DNA of 64,000 bases, from the NCBI RefSeq assembly GCF_004010195.1, contig NC_057753.1, positions 2,583,285 to 2,647,284 on the forward strand. Direction: 5' to 3'. Below, piece by piece: positions 9,167 to 61,729 of the stretch; the first letter of the stretch is position 1, and each line of letters starts with the position of its first letter. The translations under genes and the position numbers were made by a program. This stretch comes from Chiloscyllium plagiosum (taxonomy: Eukaryota). The notes under the pieces are model-generated. The model was given only the letters and a program-made list of their open reading frames with translations. It ran no database searches and was not told the origin of the DNA.

Positions 9167-9236
9167 ATGCATGGACAAGTAACTGGTCCAGTATACGCCA
9201 TCTATTATCCTGTTCTTGCAGCCTTTGGTGTACCAG
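9167..9236 (+). CDS. GPR139/GPR142-like class A GPCR gene 1, coding exon 1 (MHGQVTGPVYAIYYPVLAAFGVP; N-terminus + most of TM1)
   Basis: ATG in gaaATGc context; 70 nt ending CCAG|GTGAGT (phase 1). Joins in frame to the acceptor at 17395 to give ..FGVP-A-NL-MTIVIL, restoring the TM1 Asn. The paralogous exon at 61660 has the same length and phase. Confidence 0.9.
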
Positions 9237-9349
9237 GTGAGTCACTATGACCAATAATCTATTTTATCCATCCTTTTTGACCTTTTCTTTGTTGTTGTTA
9301 TATTCTGAGCTATATCAATAGCGTCCACTTCTCTCCTCGTTCTCCACCA

Positions 9350-9760
9350 AAGCCATCAATGTATTGCAGACAGGCACAGCAAGCAATTCAGGAGGCAAAT
9401 AACATGTTATCCTTTGTCGAAATATTGTTTCAGTTTCAGAGCCAGTAAGTCTTTCTTTTATTATTTAGAAAATGGTGATGTGCACGTTTTATGTGCAGAT
9501 CTTTTCCTCTTGCTTAAATAATGCATTACTTGCAGCAGACAGTGCAGCATAAGTTCAGAACATTGGTTTCAGGAATAATGTGGCAATGAGGGGCGGATTG
9601 ATGAATTCAGGTTTGCATTCACATGATACTTAATGATGAGAGGTGACATTATAGAAAATGTTTATCACTAATAGAAGGAACAGAGTAGGTTCAAAAAGCA
9701 CGATTCCAATGGTGTTACCAACGGCATCAAAGCATATGCAAAACGCGAGAATAGCGCCTT
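9350..9760 (+). mobile_element. Very old CR1 3' remnant in the GPCR intron
   Basis: Faint matches to CR1 C-terminal DNA (gcaattcaggaggcaaataacatgttatcctt; gatgagaggtgacattatagaa). Confidence 0.4.
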
Positions 9761-10092
9761 AATAGAACATTGAACATAGAACAGTACAGCACAGAACAGG
9801 CCCTTCAGACCACGATGTTGTGCCGAGCATTGATCCACATGTATGCACCCTCAAATATCTGTGACCATATGCATGTCCAGCAGTCTCTTAAATGTCCCCA
9901 ATGACCTTGCTTTCACAACTGCTGCTGGCAACGCATCCCATGCTCTCACAACTCTCTGTGTAAAGAACTCGCCTCTGACATCCCCTCTATACTTTCCTCC
10001 AACCAGCTTAAAACTATGACCCCTCGTGTTAGCCATTTCTGCCCTGGGAAATAGTCTCTGGCTATCAACTCTATCTATGCCTCTCATTACCT

Positions 10093-10298
10093 TGATTTGG
10101 AGATGCTGGTGTTGAACTGGGGTGTACAAACATAAAAATCACACAGCACCAGGTTATAGTCCAACAGGTTTAATTGGAAGCACACCAGCTTTCGGAGCGA
10201 CACCTGACAATCACCTGATGAAGGAGCGTCGCTCCGAAAGCTAGTGGGCTCCCAATTAAACCTGTTAGACTATAACCTGGTGTTGGGTGATTTTTAAT
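10093..10298. mobile_element. Penelope-derived fold-back insertion (family 2) nested in CR1
   Basis: aaaaatcacacagcaccaggttatagtccaacaggtttaattgg.. pairs with ..ccaattaaacctgttagactataacctggtgttgggtgattttt. It interrupts CR1 between ctcattaccttg and tctcaattagg. Confidence 0.8.
10212..10246 (+). ncRNA. Minimal type-I hammerhead ribozyme motif (PLE family 2)
   Basis: CAC-CUGAUGA-A-GGAGC-GUC-GCUCC-GAAA-GCUA-GUG: stem I CAC/GUG, intact core, 5-bp stem II, palindromic AGCU mini stem III, NUH site CUA. Confidence 0.75.
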
Positions 10299-10371
10299 CT
10301 CAATTAGGTCCCCTCTCCTCCTCCTTTTCTCCAATGAAAAAAGTCCGAGCTCAGTCAACCTCTCTTCATAA

Positions 10372-10472
10372 GGTTAAAAATCACACAACACCAGGTTATA
10401 GACCAACAGGTTTAATTGGAAGCACACTAGCTTTCGGAGCGACGCTCCTTCATCAGGTGATTGTGGAGGGCT
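10372..10472 (-). mobile_element. Penelope family-2 terminal fragment with an intact hammerhead motif (10425-10459, minus)
   Basis: The reverse complement reads CACCTGATGAAGGAGCGTCGCTCCGAAAGCTAGTG. Flanked by ataag/ataag. Confidence 0.75.
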
Positions 10473-11292
10473 ATAAGATAAGCCCTCCAGTCCAGGCAGC
10501 ATCCTAGAAAACCTCCTCTGAACTCTCTCCAAAGCATCCACATCTTTCCTACAATAGGGCTAACAGAACTGGATGCAGTATTCCAAGTGCGGTCTAACCA
10601 AAGTTTTATAGAGCTGCAACAAGATCTCATGACTCTTAAACTAAATCCCCCTTTAATGAAAGCCAAAACACCATATGCTTTCTTAACAACCCTGTCCACT
10701 TGGGTGGCCATTTTGAGGGATCTATGTACCTGCACCCCAAGATCCCTCTGTTCCTCCACAATGCCAAGAATCCTATCCTTAATCCTGTACTCAGCTTTCA
10801 AACTCGACCTTCCAAGTCATTAATAAAATTACAAACAGGAAAGGCCTATGGACAGAGCCCTGTGGAACACCACTCACCACTGACTTCCAGGCAATTTTCT
10901 TTGCTTCTACTACCACTCGCTGTCTTCTGTTGACAGCCAATTCTGTATCCAGACAACTAAGTTCTCCTGTATCTAATTCCTCCTGACCTTCTGAATGAAC
11001 CTGCCAAAGGGGAACTTATCAAATGCCTTGCTGAAGTCCATATACACCACATCCACAGCTCGACCCTCATCAACGTTTCTAGTCACATCTTCAAAGAACT
11101 CGATAAGGTTTGTGAGGCATGACCTGCCCCTCACAAAGCCGCGTTGACTGCATTTAATCAAGCCATGCTCTTCCAGATGGTCATAAATCCTATCCCTCAG
11201 AATCCTTTCTAACACCTTGCAGACGACAGACGAGAGACTTAATGGTCTGTAATTGCCGCGGATTTCCCTATTTCCTTTCTTCAAGAGAGGAA

Positions 11293-14060
11293 TTACATTT
11301 GCCTCTCTCCAGTCCTCAGGTATGGCTCCAGTGGAGAGCGAGGATGCAAAGATCCTCGCAATTGCATTTCTCGTTTCCCAAAGCAGCTGAGGACAACTCT
11401 GGTCCGGGTCTGGCGACTTGTCAATCTTAATGTTTGACCAAGTTTTCAGCACATCAGCTTCCTCTTTCTCTATCCATTCCAGCATATACACCTGCTCTTC
11501 AAAGGTTTCATTCACTACAAAGTGCGTTTCTTTCGAAAAGACAAAGCAAAAAACTCATTTAGGGCTTCCCCTACCTCCTCAGACTCCACACACAAGTTCC
11601 CTATGCTATCTCTGATCGGCCCCACTCTTTCTTTGACCATTCTCTTATTCCTCACAAAATTGTAAAATGCCTTTGTGTTCTCCATAATCCGTTCTGCCAA
11701 GCCTTTCTAGTGCCCCCTCATGGCTCTCCTCAGACCATTTTTGAGCTCCTTCCTCGCCTGCCTGTAATCCTCTACAGCTGAGCTTGACCCTAGCTTCCTC
11801 CACCTTATGTAGACTACCTTCTTCCTTTTGACGGGAAGCTTCATCGTTCTCATCATCCAAGGTCCCTTTATTTTACCCCTTCTTGCCTGTCTCAGAGGGA
11901 CATGTTTATTCATCACTGCAACCACTGTTCCTTAAACAGTCTCCACATATTTATAGTGCCTTTACCAAGGAGCAATTGCTCCCACACCACGCTTCCTAAC
12001 TCATGTCTAATCGCATCATAGTTTCCTCTTCCCCAATTAAATATCCTCCCATTTTGCCTAATCTTCTCCTTCTCCATAGCTTTGTAGAATGTGAGGCAGT
12101 TGTGGTCACTATCACCAAAATGCTCTCCCACCACAAGATCTGATACCTGCCCCGGCTCGTTTCCGAGCACCAAGTCTAAAGTGGCCTCTCCCCTCGTCGG
12201 CCTGTCAACTACTGAGTTATGGACCCTTCTGAACACACCTTACAAAAACAGCTCCATTAAAATCTTCTTCTCGAAGGAGGTTCCAATCAATATTGGGAAA
12301 GTTAAAGTCACCCATTACAACAACCCTACTACGTCCACACTTTTCCAAAATCTGCCGACCAATGCTTTTTTCAATCTCCCTGCTGCTGCTCTTGGGGGGC
12401 CTGTAGTAAACCCCTAAAGAGGTGACTGCTCCCTTGCTGTTCCCTAATTTCCCCCCATACTGACTCGGTAGGCAGGTCTTCCTCGACAATGGGAGCTTCT
12501 GTAGCTGTGATACCCTCTCTGATTAGTAGCGCTATACCCCCTCCTCTTTTCCCCCCCCTCCCTATTCTTTTTAAATGTTCTAAACCCTGGAACATCCAGC
12601 AACCATTCCTGCCCTTGAGAAATCCATGTCTCTGTTATGGCCACAACATCATAGCACCAGGTACTGATCCATGCTTTACATTTGCCTCTCTCCAGTCCTC
12701 AGGTATGGCTCCAGTGGACAGCGAGGATGCAAAGATCTTCGCAAGTGGCGAAGCAATTGCATTTCTCGTTTCCCAAAGCAGCTGAGGACAACTCTGGTCC
12801 GGGTCTGGCGACTTGTCAATCTTAATGTTTGACAAAGTTTTCAGCACATCAGCTTCCTCTATCTCAATCCATTCCAGCATATACACCTGCTCTTCAAAGG
12901 TTTCGTTCACTACAAAGTGCGTTTCTTTCGAAAAGACAAAGCAAAAACTCATTTATGGCTTCCCCTACCTCCTCAGACTCCACACGCAAGTTCCCTATGC
13001 TATCTCTGATCGGTCCCACTCTTTCTTTGACCATTCTCTTATTCCTCACAAAATTGTAAAATGCCTTTGTGTTCTCCATAATCCGTTCTGCAAAGCCTTT
13101 CTAGTGTCCCCTCATGGCTCTCCTCAGACCATTTTTGAGCTCCTTCCTCGCCTGCCTGTAATCCTCTAAAACTGAGCTTGACCCTAGCTTCCTCCACCTT
13201 ATGTAAACTACCTTCTTCCTTTTGATGGGAAGCTTCATCGTTCTCATCATCCAAGGTCCCTTTATTTTACCCATTCTTGCCTGTCTCAGAGGGACATGTT
13301 TATTCATCACTGCAACCACTGTTCCTTAAACAGTCTTCACATATTTATAGTGTCTTTACCATGGAGCAATTGCTCCCACACCATGCTTCCTAACTCATGT
13401 CTAATCGCATCATAGTTTCCTCTTCCCCAATTAAATATCCTCCCATTTTGCCTAATCCTCTCCTTCTCCATAGCTTTGCAGAATGTGAGGCAGTTGTGGT
13501 CACTATCACCAAAATGCTCTCCCACCACAAGATCTGATACCTGCCCCGGCTCGTTTCCGAGCACCCAAGTCTAAAATGGCCTCTCCCCTCGTCGGCCTGT
13601 CAACTACTGAGTTATGAACCCTTCTGAACACACCTTACAAAAACAGCTCCATTCAAATCTTCTTCTCGAAGGAGGTTCCAATCAATATTGGGAAAGTTAA
13701 AGTCACCCATTACAACAACCCTACTACGTCCACACTTTTCCAAAATCTGCCGACCAATGCTTTTTTCAATTTTCCTGCTGCTGCTATTTGGGGGGGCCTG
13801 TAGTAAACCCCTAACGAGGTGACTGCTCCCTTGCTGTCCTTAATTTCCACCCATACTGACTCGGTAGGCAGATCTTCCTCGACAATGGAAGCTTCTGCAG
13901 CTGTGATACCCTTTCTGATTAGTAGTGCTACACCCCCTCCTCTTTCTCCCCCCTCCATATTCTTTTTAAATGCTCTAAACCCTGGAACATCCAGCAACCA
14001 TTCCTGCTATGATGGCCAAAACATCATAGCACCAGGTACTATTCCAGGTACTGCTCTAAG
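11293..14060. repeat. ~1.38-kb tandem duplication inside CR1 (copies 11293-12675 and 12676-~14060)
   Basis: Both copies start ttacatttgcctctctccagtcctcaggtatggctccagtgga. ORF-track peptides recur near-identically about 1.39 kb apart (11645/13039, 11707/13101). Confidence 0.9.
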
Positions 14061-14519
14061 TTCATCACTTTTATTCCTGATACTCCTTTGAGATAAATTG
14101 TCATCCTTGATCATCTTGGCAATGCAGGTACCAAAGTGCTGAACGGTCTACTCTTACTCAAATGGTCATATATTATTAATGCTGCAACAGAATTTATGTT
14201 TAATGATAATGTCCTCAATGACTTATGACAAGGACTTAGGTCACCGATCGTTCTGAAATAGTTGTTATTGACATTATTGGTTTTGTTAGGTTGAGATTAT
14301 ATCAGGTTAAATGTTCAAGTACCTCATAATAATTCCTACAGTCGTTGGTCAGTCATTAATATTTAGAACTGAGATGCCTCTTTGTTATTATTGTTACTTG
14401 AGGGCAGAGTGTTCAACATTTGCTTTCTCATTGCTACTGATGCCAATTTAGTTGGTCAAAATCACAAAGATATCAACAACTAGAAGAGTTTTCGAGATTG
14501 TCTATTAGGAAAGGAATAT

Positions 14520-15220
14520 ATAGTATATAGTACATAGTATATAGTACATAGAATATAAAACTGCATGGGACCACAGCCTTCGGCCCACGATGTTTGTGCC
14601 ATCGGTGATGCCATTCTAGCCTACTCCCTTCTGCCTGAACCTGATCTGTGCAACTCTATTTCTTGCCTGTGCTGGTCGAAATGCTTCTTAAACGTTGTTA
14701 TCCTATCTCTTTTCACTGGCTGCAATTCCGGGGATCTACAAGCCTCTGTGTTAACGAAAGCTCTTAAGTCTCATTTAAATGTTCCTTCTCTTACGTTCGA
14801 CCTATACCACCTGGGAGTAAGACTCCGACACCTATCCAAGCCCTAACAGGTTTAGATACTTCTATTAGGTTGCCATTCGCCTATAATATCATAGAGAAAA
14901 CCGTCTAAGTTTGCTCATCACCTTCTTACAGCTCAGACATTCCAAACCAGGTAACATATTCGTAAACATCTCTTATTCCCTTTTCAAAACCTCGGCATCC
15001 TTCTGATGTGCCAGAACTTCACACAATCCCCAAATTTGGCTGACTTAAACTCTTATAGATGTGCACTACGACTTACCATCATTTGTACTCATTGCCCCAA
15101 ACAATGAAGGTAAGCATGTAGTATGCCTTCTTTACCACTTTAGTCACTTATGTTGCGAATTGCAGGGACCTATGGAATTGCACCCCATGATCCCTCTGTC
15201 GATCATATCGTATAAAGATG
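14520..15220 (-). mobile_element. Degenerate CR1 3' fragment
   Basis: (tagtatatagtaca)-type tail, cagccttcggcccacgatg, and homology to the other minus-strand CR1 3' ends. Confidence 0.65.
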
Positions 15221-15407
15221 GCATTGTTAAAAATAAAACATTTTTAAATTGGGGGACGTGTCTGTGTTTGGAAATTCAAGATATGTATTGGCACTTATGA
15301 TCTGCTTACAAAATGCTGTAAATTTATTGCCATTATCCGAGAATACTGGGATTCCGACTTGTTATCATAATATGTAGAAGCACCTGAATGATATAATTTG
15401 AGGATAG

Positions 15408-16105
15408 TGTTACAACGCGGGGTAAACCCTCCTGCTTAATTTAAACCAACAACACAGAAAAAGATGTATCCCGTGCAGTAAACTGTGAAAATTTGAGAGG
15501 CCAGACCTATTTAAAGTAAAATTAATAACTTTATTCCTTAAAGTATAACAGACAGTAATTAACTCACAACTATTTACACCTCCTTCCTCGAACCTATCCC
15601 TTCTGTAATACCAGTCCAATAAAACCCCCAATTATGATTTAAATGAAATTTCAAAATTTTAAAACCAACCAGCAATCGAATCTTCTCTATATCTTTGTCG
15701 GTAGTTTGGTTCTCCAGGTCAGTGTTGGGAGTTTTCTCTTTGCAAACTCATTCTGTAGACAGGTACCCCTCAGAGAGTTCTGACGAGCTGTCGACAACTG
15801 TTAGTCTCGTGCCAGTTCTCCTCTCAACTGTTCAATTTTCCTCAGATTTATACCCCAAAGCATAGGATTATGTCATTGGCTTTTAAGATTGTCACTATAC
15901 TCAGTCCAAACTTGATTGGAATTTGCTATTATTCGGGCTATAATATACAATGATTTGCCTAATTCGAATCATTTGTCATTTCGAAGCAACTAGCTACCCC
16001 AGTGTCTGGAGCATGGGTTACATTGTGTCTTATTGAGAACACTTGGTGCTGTCACTTCTAGCTTTTACCCTCTTAAAGACAGAGTACACCCACATCTTCA
16101 GAAGA
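15408..16105 (-). mobile_element. Solo LTR (~700 bp) with 4-bp TSD ATAG
   Basis: Starts TGTTACA and ends ..cttcaGAAGA (decayed TAACA). ATAG at 15404-15407 and 16106-16109. AATAAA on the minus strand at ~15530. Homologous to 1-139. Confidence 0.75.
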
Positions 16106-16639
16106 ATAGGAAGGTATTTTCTGGTAGTTTCCTGTTTTGCATGAACGGACAAGACTGACAAGCTTCTGCAGTGATGAGCATATGCTACATTGTTGAAAAT
16201 ACTATTAACAGCTATACTTCATAACACCTAGAACACAATTGCGTATACTGACCGTATCTGAAGATTGTGAATCTTTATTATGTTTCATAAAAACACTTGA
16301 TTTCACACCAAACAATGGAATTGAAACAGCCAACTGCTTGATGTTCACAGGGAGGGGGTAATCAATATGTGCAGAAGTTGTGTTCATGCTTTCCCGAGTT
16401 AAATAAGGAGATCGATCAATTGGTTAGTAACTCGACAAATATATAAATGTATAGACAATTGGAAAAATAGAAACAGACATTAGATGTAAGTTCTTGAATT
16501 AATCTAATTTAATATTAATATCACCTGTTTGATGCAATACTTTAATGATCTATTCAGTTTGAAACTTGTTTAATAATTATGCTGATCAAGTGTTAATACC
16601 AGCAAATGTAAATTGGTGAAAACGTTTTAGACTTAATTT

Positions 16640-16945
16640 AGAGTCGTAGAGATGTATAGCATGGAAACAGATCCTTCGGTCCAATCTGTCCATGCCGACC
16701 AGATATCCTAACCCACTCTAGTCCCACATGCCAGCACCCGGCAAATATCCCTCCAAACCATTCCGATTTGTATACTCATCCATATGCCTCTTCAATGTTG
16801 CAATTGTACCAGCCACCACCACTTCCTCTGGCAGCTCATTCCATACCCATATCACCCTCTGTGTGAAAACGTTGCCCCTTAGGTCTCTTTTATATCTTTC
16901 CTCTCTCACCCTAAACCTATGCCGTCTAGTTCTGGACTCTTTCCA
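16640..16945 (-). mobile_element. CR1 3' fragment
   Basis: ORF 16718-16909 RDLRGNVFTQRVIWVWNELPEEVV, typical of the CR1 ORF2 C-terminus. Confidence 0.85.
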
Positions 16946-17394
16946 CTATTGCTAATTCTTCCTGAATTTTTAGTTGATCGTATGCTGTAAATATATTTTC
17001 AGAAGCTTGGACATAGTTTTGCTGATTAGTTCTGGCAACTTTTTTTCCTCATCAGCTTCCCTTCACTCATCTCTGCTGCACTCTTTATAAAATGTCAATC
17101 TCACACAGTTGCATTGTCAAGATGTTAACTGTTTTCTGAATTTAGCTTCCTCCATGAACTATAAGGATACGTTTCTGAAACCATACATGGATATATGCCT
17201 GGAACCATATATCCAATGATATTCATTCTGGATACTAGCATGAAGTCAGCTTCAAATCTGCCAATGAGAACAGAGCTGATAGAGAACATGTAAATAAGCT
17301 TTGATCACACAAACCAAGGATGGAGCCAATTAATTTCAGTTAACCAAGAATAAAATAAAGAGTTTTTATTAACTCATTTTTCATTCATCTGCAG

Positions 17395-18308
17395 CGAACT
17401 TAATGACTATTGTGATCTTGTCTGTTGGACGATGTGGTCTCTCAAGATGTATCACCCGATACTTGGTATGGATGGCTGTGACTGATCTTCTGGTTATTGT
17501 CACTGGAGTGATATTAAACCGTATCAGTGTAATTTATTTCCCAGTTCGTTTCCTATCTATGACGCCAGTTTGTAGCCTCAAAATTTATGCAACCTATGTA
17601 GCCAGAGATAGCTCAGTATGGTTAACAGTTGCTTTCTCTTTTGATCGATTTGTAGCCATTTGTTGTCAGAAGTTTAAAAGAAAATACTGCAGAGAATACA
17701 TGGCAGGTGTTGTTATAGGAACAGTCTGTACTCTGAGCTGTTTTAAAAACATTCCATGGTACTTTGTATACGAACCTTTGTATGTGATTAAAGGTGTCCC
17801 ATGGTACTGTAGCATTAAATCAACATTTTTTTCTGAACTCATTTGGGCAATGTTTGACTGGATCGATCGCCTGTTAAATCCCTTTATTCCATTCCTCCTG
17901 ATGCTAGCGTTCAATGCACTAACAGTCAGAAATATTCTTGCAACATTTCGCATCCGCAGACGACTCCGTAGCCAAAGTAATGGAGAGAAACAGAGTGATC
18001 CAGAGATGGAAAATCGGAAAAAGTCCATTATCCTATTGTTTACAATATCGAGCAGCTTTCTTTTATTGTGGATGACTTATCTTGTAAATTTTCTCTATGT
18101 CCGAATCACAGACACCTATCAGTTCTCAGGTTTCAATGATCCAAAGTTTATTCTCCAAGAAAGCGGAAACATGCTTCAGCTCCTGAGCTGCTGCACCAAC
18201 ACATGCATTTATGCAGCGACCCAGTCTAAATTCAGAGAACAATTCTTAAACATGTTAAAATATCCTTTGAATCTGATAATTAAAGCAGTAATACAAAGAA
18301 GACAATGA
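17395..18308 (+). CDS. GPR139/GPR142-like class A GPCR gene 1, coding exon 2 (end of TM1 through TM7; spliced protein 327 aa)
   Basis: Acceptor ttttcattcatctgCAG|CG AAC TTA ATG. Intact frame with TM2 MAVTDLL, TM3 Cys and FSFDRFVAIC, ECL2 WYC, TM5 NPFIPF, TM7 SCCTNTCIY and helix 8 SKFREQF. Stop TGA ends at 18308. Confidence 0.93.
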
Positions 18309-18430
18309 AGTAAGTTTCTGCAGAGTTGAGTGATATTTGATGGCTGATTCTGAACTGTTGTTTATCGCATGTCAGAACACTGGAACTCCACTGCAGACAC
18401 GTCCTTTACCCTGAACAGCAGTGCTATTGA

Positions 18431-18436
18431 AATAAA
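18431..18436 (+). terminator. Polyadenylation signal of GPCR gene 1
   Basis: AATAAA about 120 nt after the stop, followed by T-rich sequence. Confidence 0.55.
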
Positions 18437-19259
18437 AAACAACTTATTAACGTATTTCTATTCCCTTAAATTTTGATGCTAAATTACAAAATTTCGAGCC
18501 TTCTATTATTTATGATCATTTGTCCAAAAAATGCTTCTTGAACAGAAGGGATATGGTATCGACAACAGAAAATACATCGTGCGATATATTTAACTCTATT
18601 ACTGTTACTGGATCCACGTAAACAGATAATGAATATGATCAAATAGTATATCATGTCTCCAGCACTGCTCGGAAATGAATTTCCACCTCGACTTCACCTA
18701 ATTCCAACAACTTTTGTCGTTGCAAATCTTCCAAGAATTGATCTTATGATGACAGAACATTTGCTCAGAGCATCTCAAAGCATTTATCACAAAGAGAAGT
18801 AAATGATTTAGCACTTCATAACTTGACAGGGAGCAAATAGTCATCAAGCCTCAATACATGTCGTAGACCATAACTTTGTAATCTGTGCCTTTCAAGAACA
18901 ATCCAAATATATTCAATTAATGTAAGGTTTCTGTCTCTCCGAGCCTTTGGGCAGTACTATCGAGATGCTCATCCGTTTCTGCTTGTAAAAACCTGACATT
19001 AAAATCTTATGCAGCTTCTGCCTCTTCCTTCAATCTCTACCTCTGGTTTGGAGCCATGATTAAATAGACGTGTTAATTATCATGGGGATGTTGTGATTTT
19101 ATATTTGCGAATGTGGTCTCACCCCAATCTTAGTATGAGTCAGCCGTGCCAGTGCAAAATATGTATGTAGTTAGATAACCATTTCCATCATGGTAAGTTT
19201 TCGTTTGAATTACTTCATTGCGGGCTGAGCCATGTGGCTACATGATGAGCGGTCAGTTA

Positions 19260-22200: not shown

Positions 22201-22790
22201 AGATGCAATTTAATCCAACAGACATTCCTTGCTCTCTGTTGTGTTCCAGCCTGACCTATCTATTCACTTTAATATTTCTGATTAATGTATACTTTACCAG
22301 CCTCACACTTGCCTCCATGCTACTGAGGATCAATGTAATTTAAACCCTCCCTAGAAGCACTTGCAAACTTCACCGCCAAGATATTGGTCCCCCTCCAGTT
22401 CAGATGTAACCCATCCCTCTTGAATAGGTCACTTCTGCCCCAGAAAAGATCTAAATGACCTAAAACTCTGAATCCCTGCCCACCTGTACCAATTCTTTTG
22501 CCACGCATTCATCTGCCAGATCTTTCTGTACTTACCCTCACTAGCATGTGGCACTGGAAGTAATCCTGAAATTACCACTAACAAGGTCCTAGTCTTTAAA
22601 CTTTCATTCTAGCTCTCCGTGATCACTCTGCAGGACCTCTTCCCTATTTCTCACCATGTCCTTTGTGCCAACATGCACAATGAATTTTGACAGCCCACCC
22701 TTTCCCTTGAGAATTTCTGCAGCCGCTCCAAGACATCCCAGACCCTGGCACCAGCAGGCAACACTTCAGAGTGGATTCCCATTTGTGGAC
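19260..22790 (-). mobile_element. Long degenerate CR1 LINE (ORF1 esterase remnant + endonuclease + RT)
   Basis: FWGRSDLFKRDGLHLNWRGTNILA (CR1 ORF1 SGNH-like), YFHARGL..AITATWL (EN), [15 protein letters not shown] (RT), 3' tail at ~19260. Carries a GT-rich low-complexity insert at ~21530-21770. Confidence 0.9.
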
Positions 22791-22879
22791 ACTGAATAAA
22801 TAAAAGTGTCTGTGCAACAGCTCAGTACCTGAAGCATATTTGCAATTCCTCTGAGAATACACTTGGGGAGCTGAACCAT

Positions 22880-25290
22880 TTGATTTTATATCCATTTATG
22901 ATTCACCTCCTTTCGGGACTTTTTTGAAATTCATTAATGCTGAAAGCATACATTACTGACCCCCTTCAATCTGGATTGCACTCCTTTCTAGGTTTTTTGG
23001 TAATTCATCAATACTGAAAACGTATTATTAACACCCTTCTATCCTGATTGAGTTCCTTTCAGGGTTATTTTAAAATTCATCAATACTGAAAACATATATC
23101 ATTGAAAACATTCAATCTTGATTGAGTCCCTTTCAGGGTTATATTGGAATTCATCCATACTGAAAACATATATTTTGACCCCCTTCAATCCTGGTTGACC
23201 TTCTCTCATTGTTATTTTGCAATTCATCAATGCTGACAACATATATTATTGACTCCCTTTTTTGTAATTCATTGATACATAGAACATATACTATTGACCC
23301 CCTCCAATCCTGATTGAGCGCCTTTCAGGGTTTCCTTGTAATTCATTAATACAAAAAACATATGTTATTGACCCTCTTCATTATGAATTGACCTCCTTTC
23401 AGGTTTTTTTTTTGTAACTCGTCAATATTGAAAACATATCCTATTGATACCTGTCAATCATAATTGACCTCCTTTCAGGTTTTTGTTTTGTGGTTTATTA
23501 ATACTGAAAACATATGTCATTGACCCCCTTCAATCTTAACTGACCTCCTTTCAGGGTTTTTATTTTGTAATTCATCAATAATGAAAACTATATATTATTG
23601 ACACTCTTCAATCCTGATTGACATCCTTTCAGTGTTTTTTTGTAATTCATCAATGCTAAAAACATATTATTAACCACCTTCAATCTTGATTGAGGTCCTT
23701 CCAGTTTCTCTTTTGTGATCCATCAATACTGAAAACATATATTATTGACCCCTTTCTATCCTGATTCACCTCCCTTCAGGGCTTTTCTTGAAAATCATCA
23801 ATACCAAAAACATGTATTATTTACCCCCTTCAATCCTGAATCACCTCCTTTCAGGATTTTTGTAATTCATCATTACTAAAAAAAATTATCGACTCCCTTC
23901 AATCTTGATTTACCTCCTTTCAGTTATTTTTTGTAACTTATCAATACTGAAAACATACATTATTGACCCCCCCCCCCCCCTTTAATCTGGATTGACCTGC
24001 TGTCAGAGTTTTTTGTAAATCATTAATACAGAAAAAAAAATATTGACCCACTCCAATCCTGATTGAACTCTTTTCAGGGTTTTTTTTTGCAATTAATCTG
24101 TACTGAAAATTTCTATTATTGACCCCTTTCATTCCTGATTGACTTCCTTTCAGGTTATTTTATCATTCATCAATACTGAAAACATATTATTGACCCCTTT
24201 CTATCCTGATTCACCTCCCTTCAGGGCTTTTTTTGAAAATCATCAATACCAAAAACATGTATTATTTACCCCCTTCAATCCTGATCCACCTCCTTTCAGA
24301 GTTTTTTGTAATTCATCATTACTAAAAAAAATCACCTCGCTTCAAGCTTGATTTACCTCCTTTCAGTTTTATTTTGTAATTTAGCAATACTAAAAATATA
24401 TATTATTGATCCCCCCACACACACCACCTTTTAATCTTGATTGACCACCTGTCAGGGCTTTTTGTAAATCATTAATACTGAAATAAAATATTATTGACCC
24501 CCTCCAATCCTGATTGAACTCATTTCAGGGTTTTTTATTTGCATTTAATCTATACTGAAAACTTTTATTATTGACTTGCTCTAATCCTGATTGACTTCCT
24601 TTCAGGTTATTTTGTTATTCATCAATACTGAAAACATATAACTGACCCCTTTCTATCCTGATTCACCTCCCTTCAGGGCCTTTTTTGCAATTCATCAATA
24701 CTGAAAACATGAATTACTTACCCCCTTCAATCTTGATTTACCTCCTTTCAGAGTTTTTTGTAATTCATCCATACTGAAAACATGGATTATTTACTCCCTT
24801 CAATCTGAATATCCTCCTATCAGGATTTTTTGTAAATCATAAATATTGAAAAGTATATATTATTGACCCCCTCCAATCCTGATTGGACACATTTCAGGTC
24901 TTTTTCTTGGAATTCATCTATACTGAAAAATTATATTATTGACCCCCTCCAATCCTGATTGACTTCCTTTCAGGTTATTTTGTCATTCGTCAATATTGAA
25001 ACCACATTATTGACCCCTTTGTATCCTGATTCACCTCCTTCAGGACATTTTTGGCAATTCATCAATACTGAAAACATGGATTATTAACCCCCCCCCCCCC
25101 CCCACTTCAATCCTGATTTACATCCTTCCAGGATTTTTTGTAATTTATCAACACTGAAATATACTATTGCGCAACCCCCCACCCCCCACCAAAAATACTG
25201 ATTGACCTCCGGTCAGGGTTCTTTTGCAAATCATCAATGCTGAAAAAGTATATTATTGACGCCCTCCAAACCTGATTGACCTCCTTTCAA
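22880..25290. repeat. AT-rich tandem satellite, ~75-bp monomer, roughly 30 copies, with higher-order organisation
   Basis: Consensus approximately caatactgaaaacatatattattgacccccttcaatcctgattgacctcctttcagggttttttgtaattcat. A diagnostic variant, ctatcctgattcacctcccttcagggc, recurs at 23756, 24201 and 24653. Confidence 0.95.
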
Positions 25291-25295
25291 TTCTC

Positions 25296-49233: not shown

Positions 49234-50349
49234 GGTCTGAAAAAGATCTCCGTGCAGGGAACTCCAAGGAAAGACTGCATCGGGTTCTAACATAATTGTC
49301 GTAATCCGAAATACCATCGGATTGTGGCCATGGAAGTTCTCAGTGGAGAGAAACTGCACACGTGTTCTGTGTGTGGACGAAGTTTCAGCCGATCAGCCGG
49401 TCTGTCAAGACACAAATGCACTGACAATTGTGAGAAACCGTGGGAATGTGGGGACTGTGGGAATAGATTCAAGTGCCCATCTGAACTGGAAACTCACCGT
49501 CGCAGTCACACTGGGGAGAGGCCGTTCACCTGCTCTGACTGTGGCAAGGAGTTAATCAATTCATCCAATCTGTTTAAACACCGGCAGGTTCACACTGGGG
49601 AAGGACTGTTCACTTGCTCCAGTTGTGAGAAGGGATTCACTTCGTCCTCTGGCCTGCTGACACACTAACGTGTTCACACTGACGAGAAACCTTTCGAATG
49701 CTCAAGTTGTGGGAAGTGCTACAAAAACTCCTGGGAACTGATCTCCCACCAACGTGTTCACACTGACGAGAGGCCGTTTAGCTGCTCGTGCTGCGGAACT
49801 GGGTTCAAGACGTCATCGGACCTCACTGTACACCGGAGAGAGGCCTTTCACCTGTCTGCAGTGTGGGATGAAGTTCACCCGGTCATCTAACCTGCGGAGA
49901 CACCAGCGCGTGCACTCTGGTGACCGGCCGTTCACCTGCACCCAGTATGGGAAGGGATTCACTCATTCGTCCAACATGCTGACACACCAAAGAACTCATA
50001 CCGGAGAGAGGCCAAACTCCTGCTCTGAGTGTGGGAAGGCTTTCGCCCAGTTGGTAGCTTACTGAAACACCACAGCGTTCACACTGGAGAGAGGTTGTTC
50101 ACCTGTTCCAAATGTGGGAAGGGATTCACTCAGTCATCCCACATGCTTGCACATCAGCGGGTTCACACCGGGGAGAGACCATTCACGTGTCTTGAGTGTG
50201 GGAAGGGATTCACCCAGCCATGCATCCTCCTGAAACACCAGCAAATCCACACTGGGGAGAGACCGTTCTCCTGTTCGCAGTGTGGGAAGAGGTTCACTCG
50301 GACATCCCATCTACTCCAACATAAGCAAATTCACAACTTACAACAGTGA
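49234..50349 (+). pseudogene. C2H2 (Kruppel-type) zinc-finger array pseudogene, ~12 fingers
   Basis: Acceptor gtcagtttcaCAG|G at 49233; repeated CxxC..H-xxx-H fingers with TGERPF linkers. Lesions: premature TAA at 49666-49668, a frameshifting deletion at ~49833, a frameshift at ~50058, and a Cys->Tyr loss (CTQYGK). Ends TGA at 50349; AATAAA at 50461. Confidence 0.9.
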
Positions 50350-50669: not shown

Positions 50670-51070
50670 CTCATAGAGATGTACAGCACGGAAACAGGTC
50701 CTTCGGTTCAACCCAACCAATTATCCTAAATTAATCTAGTCCTATTTGCCAGCATTTGGCCTATATCCTTATAAACCCTTCCTATACAACTCCCCATCCA
50801 GATGCCTTTCAAATTTAAGTGTACCAGCCTCCACCACTTCCTCTGGTAGCTCATTCCATACACTCGCCACACTCTGTGTGAAGCAGTTGTCCCTCAGGTC
50901 CATTTTAAATCTTTCCCCTCTCTTGCTAAACCACACCTCCAAATTTGGACTCCCCTATGTTGGGGAGAAGGCCTTGTCTATTTAACCAATCCATGCCCCT
51001 CTTGATTTTATAATCCTCTGTAGGGACATCCCTCAGCCTCTGGTGCTCCAGGGAAAATAACCCCAGCTTA
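50670..51070 (-). mobile_element. CR1 3' fragment
   Basis: catagagatgtacagcacggaaacagg..gtaccagcctccaccacttcctctgg; same subfamily end as 16640-16945. Confidence 0.85.
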
Positions 51071-52247: not shown

Positions 52248-52399
52248 ATCGAACGGATTGAAAAGCATATTAGTCATAATCTAATGGTGGAGCAGACAGA
52301 ATGGACTGAATTTTCTAGTTCTGCTCCTATATCTCATGATCTTATAGCGTAATAATTATCCAATCGACGTCAGAGCCTGTACAGGCAGAACCATTGAAT

Positions 52400-53060: not shown

Positions 53061-53099
53061 TGTGTCCACCTGAGCCTATTTCGAAACAGTGTTCTGGCA

Positions 53100-54540: not shown

Positions 54541-57500
54541 TGATCAAGAAGACACAAAAATACCTCCTCTTCCTCAGGCGTCTGAGAGAATTTATTCTGT
54601 CCATAAGGGCCCTCACCAACTGTTACAGATGAGCAAAGAACAAAGAACGTTTACAGCCAAGAAACAGGCCATTCGGCCCTCCAAGCCTGAGCTGATCCAA
54701 ATCTACTGTCTAAACATGTCGCCCAATTCCTAAACATCTGTATCGCTCTGCTCCCTACCTACTCATGCATCTGTCCAGACACATCTTAAATGAATCCACC
54801 GTGCCTGCCTCTACTACCTCTGCTGGCAATGAGTTCCAGGCAACTACCACCCTTCGTGTAAAGTACTTGCCGCATGTACTCCCTTTAAACTTTTCACCTC
54901 TCACCTTGAAAGCGTGACCTCTCGTTACTGAATCCTTCACCTTGGGAAAAGGCGTATCTCTATCTACCATGTACACCCTTCATGATTTGTAGATCTCAAT
55001 CACGCCCCCCTCAATTTCTTTGTTTCTGATTAAAACGATCCTAACCTACTTAACCTCTCTTCATAACTAGCATCTTCCATACTAGGCAACACCTAGTACA
55101 CCTTCTCTGCACCATCTCCAAAGCGTGCACATTTTATTGGTAATGTGGTGGCCAGAACTGTACACAGTATTCTAAATGTGGCTGAACAAATGTCTTGTAC
55201 AATTTTAACATGATCTGCCATCACTTATACTCAATACCCTGTCTGATGAAGGCAAGTCTACCATATGCCGCCTTGTCCATTCCATCTACCTGTGCAGCCA
55301 CCTTCAGGGTACAATAGACCTCCACTCCCAGATTTCTCTGCTCATCAACTTTTCCCAAGGCACCTCCGTTTACAGTATAATTCGCTCTAGAATTAAACTT
55401 TCCAAATTGCATCACCTCACATTTGTTTGGATTGAACTCTATCTGCCATTTTTCTGCCCAACTCTCCAACCTATCTGTATCTTCCGGTATTCTTTTACAG
55501 TCCCCTATGCTTTATGCTACTCCACCAATCTTCGTGTCATCTGAAAACGTGCTGATCATACCAACAGTGCCCTCTTCCAGATCATTTATGTATATCACAA
55601 ACAACAGTGGCTCCAGCACTGATCCCTGTGGAACACCACTGGTCACCATTTAAAGAAACTCCCTTCAACTACTACTCTCTCTGTATCCTGTTGCTCAACA
55701 AGTTCTTTATCCATCTAGCTGGAACACCCTGCACACGATGTGACTTCATTTCTCTATTAGTTTACCATGAGGAACCTTATCAAATGCCTTACTAAAGTCT
55801 ACAGCCCTTCCTTCATTATCAACTTGGTTACTTCCTCAAAGAACTTTATTAAGTTGGTAAGGCACGATCTTACCCGCACAAATCTATGTTGGCTATCACT
55901 GATAAGCATGTTCTTTTCAAAATATAAATAGATTTTATCCCTCAGTACCTTCTCTAGCAACTTTTCCACCCCTGACGGCAGGCTCATTGGTCTGTAGTTA
56001 CCCAGAATATCCCTACTACACTTCTTGCACAGGGGAACAACGTGAGCAACCCTCCAGTCCTCTGGCACCACACCTGTGCTAAAGGATGTTACAAAGGTAT
56101 CTGTCAGGCCCCTAGCTATTTCTTCTCTTGTCTCCCTCAGCAACCTGGGATCGATCCCATCCGGTCCTGCAGATTTGTCCACCTTAATAACCTCTAGCCT
56201 ACCCAACATATCTTCCTATTAATGTCAACATGATTCAGAGTAATCAAATGTCTATCGCTGATCTCACCATTCATCATGTCCCTCTCATCAGTGAACACTG
56301 ATGCAAAGTAATCATTCAGAATCTCACCCATTTACTCAGGTTCGACACAGAGCCTTCCTTCCTTATCCTTTAGTGGACCAATCCTTTCTCTAGTTACCCG
56401 CTTGCTTCTTATAGAAGAATGAAATACTTTGCGATTCTCCTTAATTCTTCTCACTAAAGCTATTTCATGACCCCTTTTAGCCCGCTTGATTCCTCATTTA
56501 AGAATAGTTCTACTCTCCAGATATTCCTTCAGGGCCCATTATGTTCTTAGTTGCCTGGACCATATGTACGCTTCCCTTTTCACCTTGGCTAGTCGTACGA
56601 TTTCTCCTTTCACCCACAGGAGAAATAGGCTTTTCCTATCCTTTGCTTTCAACGCGACATGCCTATCCTGCACTATCTTTAGCTTATCTTTGAAAGCCTC
56701 CCACACATCAAATGTAGACTTCCCTTCAAATAGCTGTGTTCAATACACATTTCCCAGATCCTGCCTAATGTTGATATAATTGGCCTTGGCCTCGTTTAGT
56801 ACCCTTCCCTCAGGACCACTCTCATCTTTATCTATGAGTATTCTGAAACTTACAGAATTGTGGTCAGTGTTCCCAAAGAAATCCCCCACCGCAACCACTA
56901 CCACCTGGCCTGGCACATTCCCCAATACCAGGTCCTTCCCTCGTCGGAATATTGACATATTGCTCTAGAAAACTCTCCTGGACGCTTCTTACAAATTCAG
57001 ACCTCTGGCACTAAGTGTATCCCAATCAATGTTGGGAAATTAAATCTCCCATTGCCACTGCTCTGTTGCTTTCTACATCTTCCCATAATCTGTTTACCTA
57101 TTTGTTCTACTACCTCACGCTCACTGTTGGGAGGCCTGTAATACAGCCCCAATAATGTAACTGCACCCTTCTTATTTCTCAGCTCCACCCATAATGCCTC
57201 ACTACTCAATCCCTCCATCGTGTCCTCCTTTAGGACAGCTGTGATATTATCCCTGACGAGCAATGCAACTCCTCCCGTCCCCCTTTTACTTCCCTCCCTT
57301 TCCAGTCTGAAGCGTCTATATCCCAGAACATTTAGTTGTCAATCATGTCCTTCCTTCAAGAAAGTCTCTGTGATTGCAATAATGTTCCAGGCACCAATTC
57401 AAGCCCTAGATTCATCTGCCTTACCCATTATACTCCCTGCATTAAAGTGTATGCACTTCAGCCCACCAGTTCTTTTGTGCTCATCTACTCTCTGCCTACT

Positions 57501-58250
57501 TTCCCCCTTATTAATGTGTTCATTCTGCCTATTCTTTCATTTCTATGCTGACGAGCACTGGCACTGGTCGTAATCCCGAGATCACTAATTTTGAGGACCT
57601 CCTTTTTAACTTCTCTCCTAGCTCCCTGAATTCTGCTTTCAGGACCTCATCCCGTTTTTAGTTTTATCGTCGGTGCTTATATGCACCAAGACAACTGGCT
57701 ATTCACCCTCCCCTTTTAGAATGCTCTTCAGCCGATCTGTCGCATCCTTGACCCGAGCACCTGGTTACCTTAGAAATCATTCTGTCTGGGTGCATAACGA
57801 CGTGGTAAAGCAACTTGTCTGGCCAGGACGGTAAGAAACTATAGGAGGTCGTGAGCAGAGTCGAGATAATCACTCAAGCCAACCTTCAATCCATGGACTC
57901 CATTTACCTTTCTTGTAGCAGGTGAAAGGCTGCCAAAATCTCTAAAGATGCATATCACCACAGAAATGCTCTCATACAATCTCTTCCATCAGGCCGAAGA
58001 TGCAGAATCATGAACGCTGGTTGCATTTTCACGAAAAAGCTTCTTCCCTGCCGTTATGAGAGAGATGAATGGTCTCTCAGACTTCAAATATTATGGATGT
58101 CCTATAATGGTGTAATCTGTATGCTTCACTCTGTTCAATTTTTTTTTTACTCGATCTTTATGTCCTTGCTTACTGTAATCTACTTATATTTCTCACAAAG
58201 ATTTCATTGTACTTAGGTACATGCGACTAAACATCAAACCAAATCAATTC
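54540..58250 (+). mobile_element. Rex1/Babar 3' portion split by a CR1 insertion (pieces 54540-54631 and ~57767-58250)
   Basis: KKTQKYLLFLRRLRE..RALTNCYR resumes after the CR1 as TLEIILSGCIT..QD..LPSGRRCR. 3' tail ttcattgtacttaggtacatgcgac..aaatc. Confidence 0.8.
54632..57765 (-). mobile_element. CR1 LINE (ORF1 remnant, EN, RT, 3' tail)
   Basis: LWVELRNKKG..YYRPPN, TDHNSV, NYRPMSL..RSCLTNL, CEVMQFG; (aaagaac)n tail at ~54636. Confidence 0.92.
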
Positions 58251-58399
58251 ATTGTCATCACCAGAATGCTGTCGGGCGTCATAGTCTTTGCCATATTCAG
58301 TGCGCCAACCATTTCTTTGACAGACTTTGGACAACCTGAAAATGAAGGTATTTTAGTCAAAGTAAAATTTCCATTGTTACTTTCACCAGATGGCTTGTG

Positions 58400-58585
58400 A
58401 TGTCACGTGCCAGTCCCACCGAACCTGCACAACCTTGCGGGAGGAAATTGGGGCACCCGGACAAAAGCCATGCAGATTCGGGGTAAATGTGCACACTCCA
58501 TAAACATAAGTGTCCAAGGCTGGAATCAAAACGGGTCCCTAACGCTGTGACGTAACAGTGCTAACCACTGAGCCAGCGTGCCACA
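58400..58585 (-). mobile_element. Decayed tRNA SINE
   Basis: Reverse complement GCTGGCTCAGTGGTTAGCAC..GATTCCAGCCTTGGAC. Confidence 0.7.
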
Positions 58586-59295
58586 AGTTGATTCCATTTG
58601 CCGTGGAACATGGTGAGCTGTTTATCCACTTTAACGTGCTAGTAGAGGCGCTTGCCTCGTGGTACTATCGCTGGACTATTAATTCCCGGTTCCACTCTGA
58701 CATGGCATTTGAATTTGAATTTAATAAAAGTCTGGAATTAAGAGTCTAAGCATAACCGCGGATCCATGTTTCTTTTGGAAATTGTTTGGCAAAATCCGTC
58801 TGTCTCATTAATGTCTTTACGGAAGGAAACTACCATTCTTACTTGTTCTGGCCTAAATGGTTATTAGTATCTGGAAATCCGTCCATCTCTAAAGCAAGCA
58901 TATATATGCAATTGTAATGCATCAAGATGACACCTTCAGCGACGTTGAGCTGCTGTCTGCATGAACAAGACACTAATCTTAGGCGACAACTCATACAATT
59001 CTGTGATGAATTTTCGAGCAAAAAAAAAACAGAAATAGTAAAACTTACAGCAATTCGCTAAGGTCTGAATATGCACATGAATTTGTAATAAAATATTTAT
59101 GAAATTGGAGACTTAAACTTGAAAGAGGACAAAACGAGGATCACATAGATTTAGAACTTTTTCCACAAGCATTAAACAGTCTAGACGATTCGATTGTGTA
59201 TATACATGAATGGGCTCTGATTAAAAGTTGTTAAAATACATTTGCATCGCTCAAAAAAGAGGGTTAGAATAGAGTGGTGCTGGAAAAACATAGCA

Positions 59296-60695
59296 AGCAA
59301 AGAGGGAGTTTGACCCCACCCTACAGCTCACCAAAAGGATAAACATCACACTGAGGAACCTACCAAAAAACGGAGAGATAACCAGGTTTGACCTACAAAG
59401 AATGACACTGAAAGCAACAACACCCCCAGATTCTATGGACCACCTAAAATGCACAAACCAGACATCCCACTCAGACCAATAGTATCACTACTAGGGACAC
59501 CATCACACTAACTGGCTAAAGAACTAGAGCAGAAACTGAAACACCTGATCAGCGGATCCAGACACTCTATACAGTCAACACAGGAATTCTTGGACATCAT
59601 CAGAAATATACACATAGACAAGGAAGAAACTATGGTCTCATTTGTTGTAACGGCACTGTTCACCTCTATCGACAAAACCCTAGCCAGAGAAACAATAGCC
59701 AACCTGCTGGACATACAGAACAGACAACAGGACGGTGAACCTATCAACAAAGACGTCACACTCAAACTACTGGACCTGTGCCTCACAACACACTTCACAT
59801 TCAACAACCAAATATATGAACAAATCAAGGCACACCCATGGGCTCACCCATCTCTGGACTCAGCAGAAGCGGTAATGCAAAGATTAGAACAAACAGTCTT
59901 ACCGCAAATTCAACCCAAACTTTGGGTCAGATATGTAGATGACACCTTTTGTAATCATTAAAAACACAGAAATAGAGAACACACACCGGATCATCAACGC
60001 CANNNNNNNNNNNNNNNNNNNNNNNNNTACACCAGGACTGCAAAAAGAGGAAGAAGAACACCTATACAATGTATTCGCCAAAAACGGATACCCGCGCAAT
60101 TTCATCAACAGATGCCAAAGGGAAAGACAACGGAATGACGACATGCCACAACCAGAAGGACTAGCCACGCTACCATACAACAAGAGCATTTCCGAACTGA
60201 CAGCCAGACTACTGCGACCACTAGGACTCATAACAGCACACAAACCAACAGCCACTCTCAGACAACAACTCACCAGAACGAAGGACCCGATACCCAGCAT
60301 GAGCAAAACCAATGTAGTGCACAAATTCCCATGCAAGGACTGCACAAAACACTACATAGGACAAACAGGAAGACAGCTAACGATCCGCAACCCTGAACAC
60401 CAACCAGCCACGAAACGACACAACCAGCTATCTTTAGTAGCCACACACGCAGATGACAAGCAACATAAATTCGACTGGGACAACACAACTATTATAGGAN
60501 NNNNNNNNNNNNNNNNACCACTGCAGCGGACAGCTGGAACTGACAACCGGAAGCGGCAGATTCAAACCATTATAAATACCGGAGGATCACAGAAGCGCTT
60601 CACAGGAGGCTCCCAAGCACTGAGGATGTCACCTAGACAGGGGACGAAACGTCTGCAACACAAATTCCCAGCTCGGCGAACAAAACCACAACAAC
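59296..60695 (+). mobile_element. Penelope-like element (separate family): RT + GIY-YIG + terminal repeat, inserted into a family-1 PLE terminus; 8-bp TSD
   Basis: PRFYGPPKMHKPDIPLRPIVS, WVRYVDDTF, NGYPRNFI, NVVHKFPCKDCTKHYIGQTGR. TSD acatagca at 59288-59295 and 60696-60703. Contains two N gaps. Confidence 0.92.
60617..60656 (+). ncRNA. Minimal type-I hammerhead ribozyme motif in the PLE terminal repeat
   Basis: GCA-CUGAGGA-U-GUC-A-CC-UAGACAG-GG-GAC-GAAA-CGUC-UGC: stem I GCA/UGC, CUGANGA core, GAAA, GUC cleavage site. Confidence 0.72.
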
Positions 60696-60889
60696 ACATA
60701 GCAGGTCAGGCAGCATCCGAGGAATAGGAAAATCGACGTTTCGGGCAAAAGCCCTTCGTCAAAAAAAAGGTGTTGATGACTGAACAATGATTACCCTCTG
60801 CCTGCTTCTTGAAGCCTATAGACTGAAATTTGGAAAGGATACAGCAAAACACAATTTCACACATTTAAAACAGAATGATTATGGTGTTT

Positions 60890-61270
60890 GATGCTACAGT
60901 GCAACAAACGCTGGTGAAGGCAAATTGTATGCTGGCCCTCAAAGCGGAAGGGTAGAATACAGGAGCAAGGATCCCTTTCTCCTGTTGTACAGGGCCTTGG
61001 TGAGACCAGAAGGTATTTTGGCTATGGAGGGAGAGGAACAAATGATGACCAGACTGATTCCTGGAATGGCTGGACAAATATACAGAGAGGCACTGACTCA
61101 TTTAGAACTATATTTACTGGAGCTTGGAAGAATGAGGGGGAATCTCATATAAATCTATAAATCTCTGACAGGAGTAGAGAGCGTCAGCATAGAAAGAATG
61201 TTACCGATGACCAGAGAATTTAGGAGCAGGACAGTCTCCAAGAGCCGAGCTTCTATTTTCTATGTTTCTA
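60890..61270 (+). mobile_element. Old CR1 3' fragment
   Basis: VEYRSKD..LLLYRALVRP..TRLIPGM..LELGRMRGNLI. Confidence 0.7.
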
Positions 61271-61659
61271 TTGAGAGTCACAATTAGATTTGAGGCTACA
61301 TCACTTGCTCTGTGATCGCTTGTGCTGAAGAATTATCAGGAGGCAGACTTTGGCTCCGTTTTCCATGAAAGATTGATTTCTCATCGCAGGTTACTCTGCG
61401 GAGGGTCCGTGTGGACTTGTTGGGCCGAAGGGCCTGTTTCCACACTGTAGGGAATCTAATCTTAAAAAAGATACCATGAAGGAATATAATTTACCCATGG
61501 AAATATAAACACCACCTGAGCAACAGCTGCACGGATCTGTTTGTTGCAAGGACTTTCATAAAACTTAACGAACTAATAAGCTCCCTCGAGCCTGGAAGGA
61601 GGCATATATATCACAATTTTACACTGAAATACTGAACGAGCCCACAGCATCTGATAGAA

Positions 61660-61729
61660 ATGCATGAAGCACTAAAAGGTCTGCTGTTTGCCATTTACTA
61701 TCCCGTCATTGCACTCATCGGAGTTCCAA
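61660..61729 (+). CDS. GPR139/GPR142-like GPCR gene 2, coding exon 1 (MHEALKGLLFAIYYPVIALIGVP); the remainder lies beyond the window
   Basis: gaaATGc start; 70 nt; donor CCAA|GTAAGT (phase 1). Shares MH and AIYYPV.A..GVP with exon 1 of gene 1. TATATA at ~61605. Confidence 0.82.

Follow-up and report, generated by a model that had tools for sequence, protein, structure and literature searches.

The receptors GPR139 and GPR142 have been tied to the protostome MIP, FMRFamide and related receptors (PMC8514136), and two further groups of unclear membership, "Orphan 139-like" and "NMOGPR", stand beside them in Table 1 of PMC5207463. GPR210A and GPR210B have been named from coelacanth, gar and teleosts in a study whose accessible text does not contain the word "shark" (PMC6504862). 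In GPR139, the Trp/Phe site requires F109, H187, W241 and N271, with R244 as a polar anchor in the published model (PMC5430874), and the zebrafish receptor is 70% identical to the human one (PMC7318219). Here, we describe GPR139-like genes in a 64,000-nucleotide (nt) stretch of the shark Chiloscyllium plagiosum (contig NC_057753.1, positions 2,583,285 to 2,647,284 of the forward strand), referred to as the window, with positions counted from its first letter. The window holds one intact receptor gene (gene 1), one half-seen gene (gene 2) and one relic, and, as judged from protein searches and trees, gene 1 is a member of a large family, found in sharks, rays and chimaeras, whose genes lie in clusters.

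Gene 1 lies on the forward strand and consists of a 70-nt coding exon 1 (9167..9236), which encodes a 9-residue N-terminal tip and the first half of transmembrane helix 1 (TM1) and ends in a GT donor in phase 1, a GT-AG intron of 8158 nt (9237..17394) with its acceptor AG at 17393-17394, and a coding exon 2 (17395..18308) encoding the remainder of TM1 through TM7, helix 8 and the stop. Joining the two exons yields 984 nt and a product of 327 residues whose sole stop is terminal; among ten join offsets tried, 17392 and 17398 are also in frame but lack a preceding AG. The first 23 residues are identical in four shark proteins (P0001-P0004, from Chiloscyllium punctatum, Scyliorhinus torazame, Heptranchias and Mustelus), in which the exon-2 sequence then continues; being predicted gene models rather than transcripts, they give independent support for the exon join at the level of sequence. 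The intact two-exon gene for a seven-helix receptor proposed in a preliminary description of the window is therefore confirmed by its GT-AG join, its open frame, its domain match and these identical starts. When two single-cell runs, sampled at ~2% and ~6%, and two contig sets were aligned to 9000-18900, neither exon had RNA coverage and no 9236-17395 joint was among the joints listed, an outcome uninformative on expression: all 775 reads from run X5 (~2% read) fall in intron repeats, and run X6 (~6% read) gave 0 reads.

Exon 2 has a single Pfam match, 7tm_1 (E value 1.3e-15). The AlphaFold model of P0001, a homologue 96% identical to the gene 1 product, shows seven TM helices and helix 8 at a mean predicted local distance difference test score of 79.9, and the Foldseek matches of this model are class A without exception. 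The core motifs are present as N25 (N1.50), D54 (D2.50), D107-R108-F109, P189 (P5.50), W249 (W6.48), N292 (N7.49) and Y296 (Y7.53), with Thr in place of both P6.50 and P7.50. Profile, fold and core motifs thus agree that the gene 1 product is a class A (rhodopsin-like) G-protein-coupled receptor (GPCR). It also carries the signature of the chondrichthyan family, namely a Met-His start, 13 residues before Y1.39, the cysteines C83 and C162, and E279.

The second, diverged exon 1 that had been reported about 52 kb downstream, on the same strand and with the same length and phase, withstands statistical scrutiny. This coding exon 1 of gene 2 (61660..61729, forward strand) is 70 nt long, ends in a GTAAGT donor in phase 1, and shares 46 of its 70 nt, and 13 of its 23 residues, with exon 1 of gene 1. 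It is recognized by the hidden Markov model (HMM) of the family at an E value of 2.4e-5, and its ungapped BLOSUM score of 72 is well above chance, the next-best site in the window scoring 29 and five shuffles yielding 24-36. The window does not contain an exon 2 of gene 2, as no exon-2-like frame occurs in the 2.27 kb from 61730 to the window end. Between the two first exons, the proportion of nonsynonymous differences (pN) is 0.14 against 0.66 for synonymous differences (pS) in codons 11-23, the TM1 part, and 0.43 against 0.49 in codons 2-10, the tip, a comparison resting on 23 codons only; the purifying selection postulated earlier is borne out for the TM1 part. The trace of a third paralogue, which the preliminary description had overlooked, is a relic of 29 codons of TM7 on the reverse strand (22781..22867), flanked by a satellite array and by further DNA of repeat-like character. 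Read from 22867 to 22781, it matches the family HMM at an E value of 4.7e-8, and 62 of its 87 nt are identical to exon 2.

The extent of the family was explored with a protein search using exon 2, which gave 1976 matches at E <= 0.001 among 2969 candidates; the best 120 of the 1976 were tallied, and since the counts refer to 90% clusters among the nearest matches, they set a minimum for the number of gene models. A shark or ray name is attached to 117 of these 120, and a hand tally assigns 37 to Heterodontus, 20 to Heptranchias, 10 to Pristiophorus, 9 to Rhinoraja, and 7 each to Mobula birostris and Narcine; 95 of the 120 are full-length models of 315-335 residues with a Met start. Because the rows of a species fall on contigs of one size, the family apparently clusters on chromosomes in these relatives: matched by equal size, not by coordinates, 28 of the 37 Heterodontus rows are apparently on one 59.5-Mb contig and 6 on another, and all rows of Rhinoraja (9/9), Narcine (7/7) and Amblyraja (5/5) apparently lie on a single contig each. 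The name "probable" or "putative GPCR 139" is carried by 109 of the 120 rows, and other members go by names such as GPR15-like, capa receptor-like, vasopressin V2-like and NMUR2-like; these names are therefore best-hit labels, and "GPR139" is a misleading name for these genes.

A profile built from 40 members (A1) and searched against 1.84 billion representatives gave 135 clusters at E <= 1e-30. Cluster look-ups that named 30 of the proteins, together with a further search from seven aligned bony-vertebrate relatives (evaluated for the best 120 of its 187 matches), resolved the chondrichthyan family, an amphibian type, a type ranging from sharks to snakes, a single divergent protein of teleosts, and proteins of amphioxus. 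Trees were computed with FastTree on 165 rows and with an IQ-TREE mixture model on 35 of those rows, with exon-2 search rows outside 300-345 residues and most partial representatives left out; true GPR139 and GPR142 are not included, none having come up as a usable protein in searches with exon 2, an amphioxus relative, the bony-vertebrate alignment or the family profile. The root of the trees consists of four or five proteins assumed to be invertebrate, and long-branch warnings apply. The chondrichthyan rows form one clade (99/94 in IQ-TREE, 35 rows), with the amphibian type as its sister (95/91), both in agreement with FastTree, and the chordate rows are separated from four assumed-outgroup rows by a branch with 100/99 support (IQ-TREE). 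The Callorhinchus member (P0146) falls inside the chondrichthyan clade. Gene 1 is 59-96% identical to 103 core chondrichthyan members and is likewise placed inside the shark/ray/chimaera clade, in an orthologue group holding 1-2 proteins each from Chiloscyllium, Scyliorhinus, Mustelus, Heterodontus and Heptranchias. The persistence of these orthologues in five other sharks, at 77-96% identity, argues that gene 1 is under constraint, and several other subfamilies hold sharks together with batoids (FastTree), so that much of the expansion is old. The duplicated array and lineage expansion suggested beforehand are thus supported by at least 37 Heterodontus models, 28 of them apparently on one contig, in a single clade, of which the window is an ordinary member. 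The open-access literature, with subscription papers mostly outside it, yielded no account of this shark expansion, and term searches of the accessible parts of PMC10620051, PMC7677710, PMC10751288 and PMC13113109 gave nothing on the family.

The relation to GPR139 proved more distant than the preliminary description had claimed. In a single-sequence search, human GPR139 is matched at an E value of 5.4e-5, not better than GPR15. Against solved structures, the family profile ranks human GPR139 best (E value 1.7e-19, 73 bits; next 1.8e-11, 47 bits), so that, among solved structures, no human receptor is closer. With this profile, however, a salamander protein scores 208 bits, a coelacanth protein 189, an amphioxus protein 136 and four outgroup receptors 100-111; with GPR139 below the amphibian and even the outgroup scores, and with R6.51 lost, the claim of close GPR139/142 kinship is not supported. 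The structural alignment gives 22-23% identity to human GPR139, and the fold search did not set GPR139 apart from other class A receptors. In the profile alignment, F109, H187, W241, N271 and R244 of GPR139 face Y91, D181, W249, N282 and Y252, respectively, with T90 at E3x32; two of the four residues needed for Trp/Phe activation are kept, one is conservatively changed and one is replaced, and the R6.51 anchor is missing. A basic residue at 6.51 is found in 41 of 41 amphioxus and bony-vertebrate rows versus 4 (Arg) of 104 core chondrichthyan rows, and Arg at 3.36 in 94 of 104 core chondrichthyan rows versus 0 of 46 non-chondrichthyan rows, while E279 is present in all 104 core rows. The cysteines linking TM3 and extracellular loop 2 (ECL2) are invariant in the core family and its chordate relatives, with no counterpart in the human GPR139 chain as aligned. 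Orthology to GPR139 or GPR142 was rejected on the low identity, the changed pocket residues and the profile score below that of outgroup receptors, and the profile searches and tree instead place gene 1 in a wider GPR139-like orphan group of chordates.

Most core members have 13 residues before Y1.39; the amphibian type has 13-15 and amphioxus 11-14, and the amphioxus and bony-vertebrate relatives together span ~11-16. As read from these alignments, the short N-terminus is ancestral to the GPR139-like group, so that "almost no N-terminus" is true of the window's receptors but fails as a shark novelty. No glycosylation sequon occurs within the first 12 residues in 91 members, and the tip is fixed within the gene-1 group and variable between subfamilies. 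Both genes and 91 of the 95 full-length homologues start with Met-His, and the invariant N-terminal His could be a metal site or a lid; N-terminal His residues take part in the zinc activation of GPR39. A second GPR139-like type, apparently single-copy, is present in sharks, teleosts, turtles, lizards and snakes (P0224, P0307, P0359, P0404), and two of its models are annotated as TMEM183A isoforms, suggesting a gene beside or inside TMEM183A. No bird or mammal protein is among the best 120 of the 187 matches to the bony-vertebrate alignment, a weak negative given that the search is word-based.

What do these receptors detect? Our analysis suggests, with evenly balanced confidence, that the family is an array of chemical sensors forming a separate branch of GPR139-like orphan receptors. 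More tentatively, and leaning slightly towards doubt, we propose that cartilaginous fishes built their own chemoreceptor family from a neuropeptide-receptor-like orphan gene, which would be a seventh vertebrate family of chemosensory GPCRs, predating the split between sharks and chimaeras, larger than the known repertoire and hidden under the name GPR139. The weight given to chemosensing comes from the precedent of other large clustered GPCR families: vertebrate GPCR families of such size are mostly chemosensory, and the srw chemoreceptors of nematodes arose from the same FMRFamide-receptor-like branch. Matches to srw appear among the Atlas neighbours of the receptor, and the nearest human protein by profile, GPR139, senses Trp and Phe, which we count in favor of chemosensing. 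The presence of many clustered paralogues with birth and death, the clustering being read from equal contig sizes, is a further property of chemoreceptor classes found here. The published setting is one of scarcity, with 65 chemoreceptor genes from six known families in the catshark (PMC6368271) and a "relative paucity" of GPCRs in cartilaginous fishes (PMC8455134).

The distribution of subfamily-specific residues also bears on this reading. With specificity scored as conservation within minus conservation between nine subfamilies (95 rows), 27 canonical pocket positions average 0.22 versus 0.10 for the other TM positions (p=0.0007), and the top 30 subfamily-specific positions include 8 in the pocket and 4 in the N-terminal tip. 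Plain entropy shows the usual outside-over-inside difference only. The enrichment in the predicted pocket fits the ligand diversification envisaged in the preliminary description. Several observations weigh against a chemosensory array. Compared with other outer-TM positions, the pocket average is 0.22 versus 0.15 at p=0.07, for a 27-position list drawn up after the entropies were known and with pocket-facing orientation taken from generic numbering, not from model coordinates. Pocket entropy is no higher than that of other outer-TM positions (1.00 versus 1.08, p=0.61), and the paralogue sample is skewed towards the matches nearest the query. In addition, a catshark brain and olfactory library has no GPCR gene in its top-50 list (PMC11979771, where the term "GPR" is absent from the accessible text), a weak point because single receptors are lowly expressed, and the wider group has been classed with neuropeptide receptors (PMC5207463, PMC8514136).

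As a plausible mechanism for such an array, the duplicating unit would be the 70-nt exon 1 together with one large exon 2, copied in tandem as genes are born and lost. The charged residues R94 (3.36), D95, D178, D181, R182 and E279, a core common to the paralogues, would anchor a common chemical group, replacing the R6.51 anchor of GPR139, and rim positions 2.64, 3.28, 3.29, 3.32, 7x38 and ECL2 would set specificity. Each paralogue might then have a ligand of its own, a small charged molecule or a short peptide, and the family would sample many related ligands. Signalling could proceed through Gq or Gi, as in relatives, and expression would be expected in sensory or barrier epithelia of the nose, mouth, skin, gill and gut.

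We regard it as unlikely, although deserving serious attention, that the receptors act in immune or barrier cells and in neurons for pain or itch, where they would detect peptides and acids from microbes, parasites or damage in the role that MRGPR, FPR and chemoattractant receptors play in bony vertebrates. The new Arg at 3.36 in the core shark clade (94/104 versus 0/46 rows) is suggestive here, as R3.36 is the carboxylate anchor of the HCA and GPR35 receptors. Cartilaginous fishes reportedly lack the MAS1-related GPCR family (PMC8455134), which would leave an MRGPR-type niche open, and a looser link is the C2H2 zinc-finger relic between the two genes, since zinc-finger arrays flank shark MHC-Ia-like genes (PMC10751288). 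However, there is no sequence kinship with MRGPR or FPR, GPR139 being the best profile match among solved structures, and orthologues that remain stable from shark to shark are less in keeping with an arms race against pathogens. That the ligands are endogenous neuropeptides or hormones acting in brain, gut or reproductive tissue, perhaps secreted or pheromone-like peptides of a diversified family of cartilaginous fishes, is rather improbable in our estimation, even though the wider clade falls together with NTSR, TRHR, GHSR and protostome MIP, FMRFamide and sex-peptide receptors (PMC5207463, PMC8514136). The cysteine pair between TM3 and ECL2 and the beta-hairpin ECL2, both typical of peptide receptors, are kept, and several conserved acidic residues line the pocket, but the N-terminus is too short to aid the binding of large peptides. 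Dozens of clustered paralogues with turnover would also be unusual for an endocrine system, and we know of no matching ligand family.

The expansion might instead be largely neutral: function would rest with a few conserved receptors such as gene 1, and the majority of copies, gene 2 and the relic among them, would be by-products of duplication in repeat-rich DNA. One of the three traces in the window is indeed a dead fragment beside a satellite, gene 2 has no exon 2 within the window, and many of the representatives clustered at 50% are partial or oddly long gene models. Yet among the best 120 of 1976 homologues, 95 models are full-length, with 315-335 residues and a Met start, several subfamilies persist in sharks and batoids alike, and pN is well below pS in the TM1 part of gene 2 exon 1, and we consider this explanation quite improbable. 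We find it scarcely credible that these genes are true GPR139 or GPR142 duplicates detecting Trp and Phe like the mammalian receptors. Human GPR139 is the best match among solved structures (1.7e-19 versus 1.8e-11 for the next), the two have W6.48, N7x38, Y1.39, an acidic 7x35 and the absence of P7.50 in common, and both are two-exon genes. In contrast, identity is 22-23% whereas zebrafish GPR139 keeps 70% to human, the profile score lies under those of outgroup receptors, H5x43 and R6.51 are replaced, and a cysteine pair is present that the human chain lacks as aligned.

A clustered family with at least 37 models in one horn-shark genome, among the best 120 of 1976 matches, ill fits the published picture of cartilaginous fishes as poor in GPCRs and chemoreceptors. 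Expression in sensory cells would change the account of shark smell or taste, and expression in immune cells would add to shark innate sensing a large arm that has gone unstudied. As it is apparently single-copy, the amphibian sister gene offers a laboratory handle, in Xenopus and the axolotl, on the ancestral role.

The surroundings of the genes contain candidate regulatory signals and abundant repeats. TATA-like hexamers begin 81 nt upstream of the ATG in gene 1 and 55 nt upstream in gene 2, against an expectation of 0.08 per 117 nt, so that the TATA-like motif noted earlier before both first exons is recovered; the candidate boxes, identified by consensus match, are at 9086..9093 and 61605..61610 on the forward strand. 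The first AATAAA after the gene 1 stop (18431..18436, forward strand) is a candidate poly(A) signal by sequence match. In the gene 1 intron, 4745 nt resemble sequence at other places of the window, and a 1.4-kb repeat-derived segment is tandemly duplicated (11293-12671 and 12676-14046, 94% identical). The satellite that abuts and cuts off the TM7 relic (22891-25292) is made of ~74-nt units in ~30 copies that are ~70% alike. Between the two receptor genes, a C2H2 zinc-finger array extends over two frames with an in-frame stop (49291-50349, forward strand) and is likely a pseudogene. Decayed frames with assembly gaps at 59512-60727 (forward strand), which presumably represent the reverse transcriptase and GIY-YIG endonuclease of a Penelope-type element, gave no Pfam match for the piece tested.

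Pieces of DNA run X1 cover both gene 1 exons near-identically, with 0 of 179 nt and 1 of 395 nt differing over exon 2. Summed depth in the bin 17606-17936, which spans the conserved TM3 motif, is 922 versus 2-10 in adjacent unique bins and hints at many near-identical copies, depth being no copy number. An X1 contig over 9004-9788, at a depth of 26 versus 3-9 for unique pieces, is close to exon 1 and the intron start and carries at least 21 substitutions and 5 insertions or deletions in 9053-9162, right before the ATG (34 substitutions overall, 25 of the 34 being listed). This contig may represent a recent duplicate or a gene conversion with a different promoter.

Set against named systems, the window's genes belong to the same family as the shark and ray models annotated as "GPCR 139", e.g., GCC37332.1 (P0001), which has the 327-residue length of the gene 1 product and is 96% identical to it. 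These models are catalogue entries with best-hit names, and we found no paper treating them as a family. The amphibian GPR139-like receptor (P0217 from Pleurodeles; P0317, XP_031757816.1, from Xenopus tropicalis) has the cysteine pair, W6.48 and N7x38 in common with the shark family, but is 29-32% identical, keeps P6.50 and a basic 6.51, and is without R3.36 and E7x35. This amphibian type occurs once per species in 20 rows among the best 120 of 187 matches and is apparently single-copy. The "Orphan 139-like" and "NMOGPR" groups and GPR210A/B probably correspond to some of the bony-vertebrate clades recovered here. Human GPR139 (PDB 7vug, 9m42) resembles gene 1 in its class A fold, two exons and several TM motifs, and shares W6.48, N7x38, Y1.39, an acidic 7x35 and the missing P7.50 with the shark family. 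Unlike the shark family, it is single-copy and brain-expressed, with a longer N-terminus, a pocket that differs at 3.32, 3.33, 5x43 and 6.51, and residues other than Cys aligned with C83 and C162. The established chemosensory families (OR, TAAR, V1R/ORA, V2R, T1R and T2R) are similar in their clusters, many paralogues, dead copies, subfamily-specific pocket residues and very short N-terminus. However, 7tm_1 is the only Pfam match of the gene 1 product, and both tree and profile point away from these families, to the GPR139-like branch.

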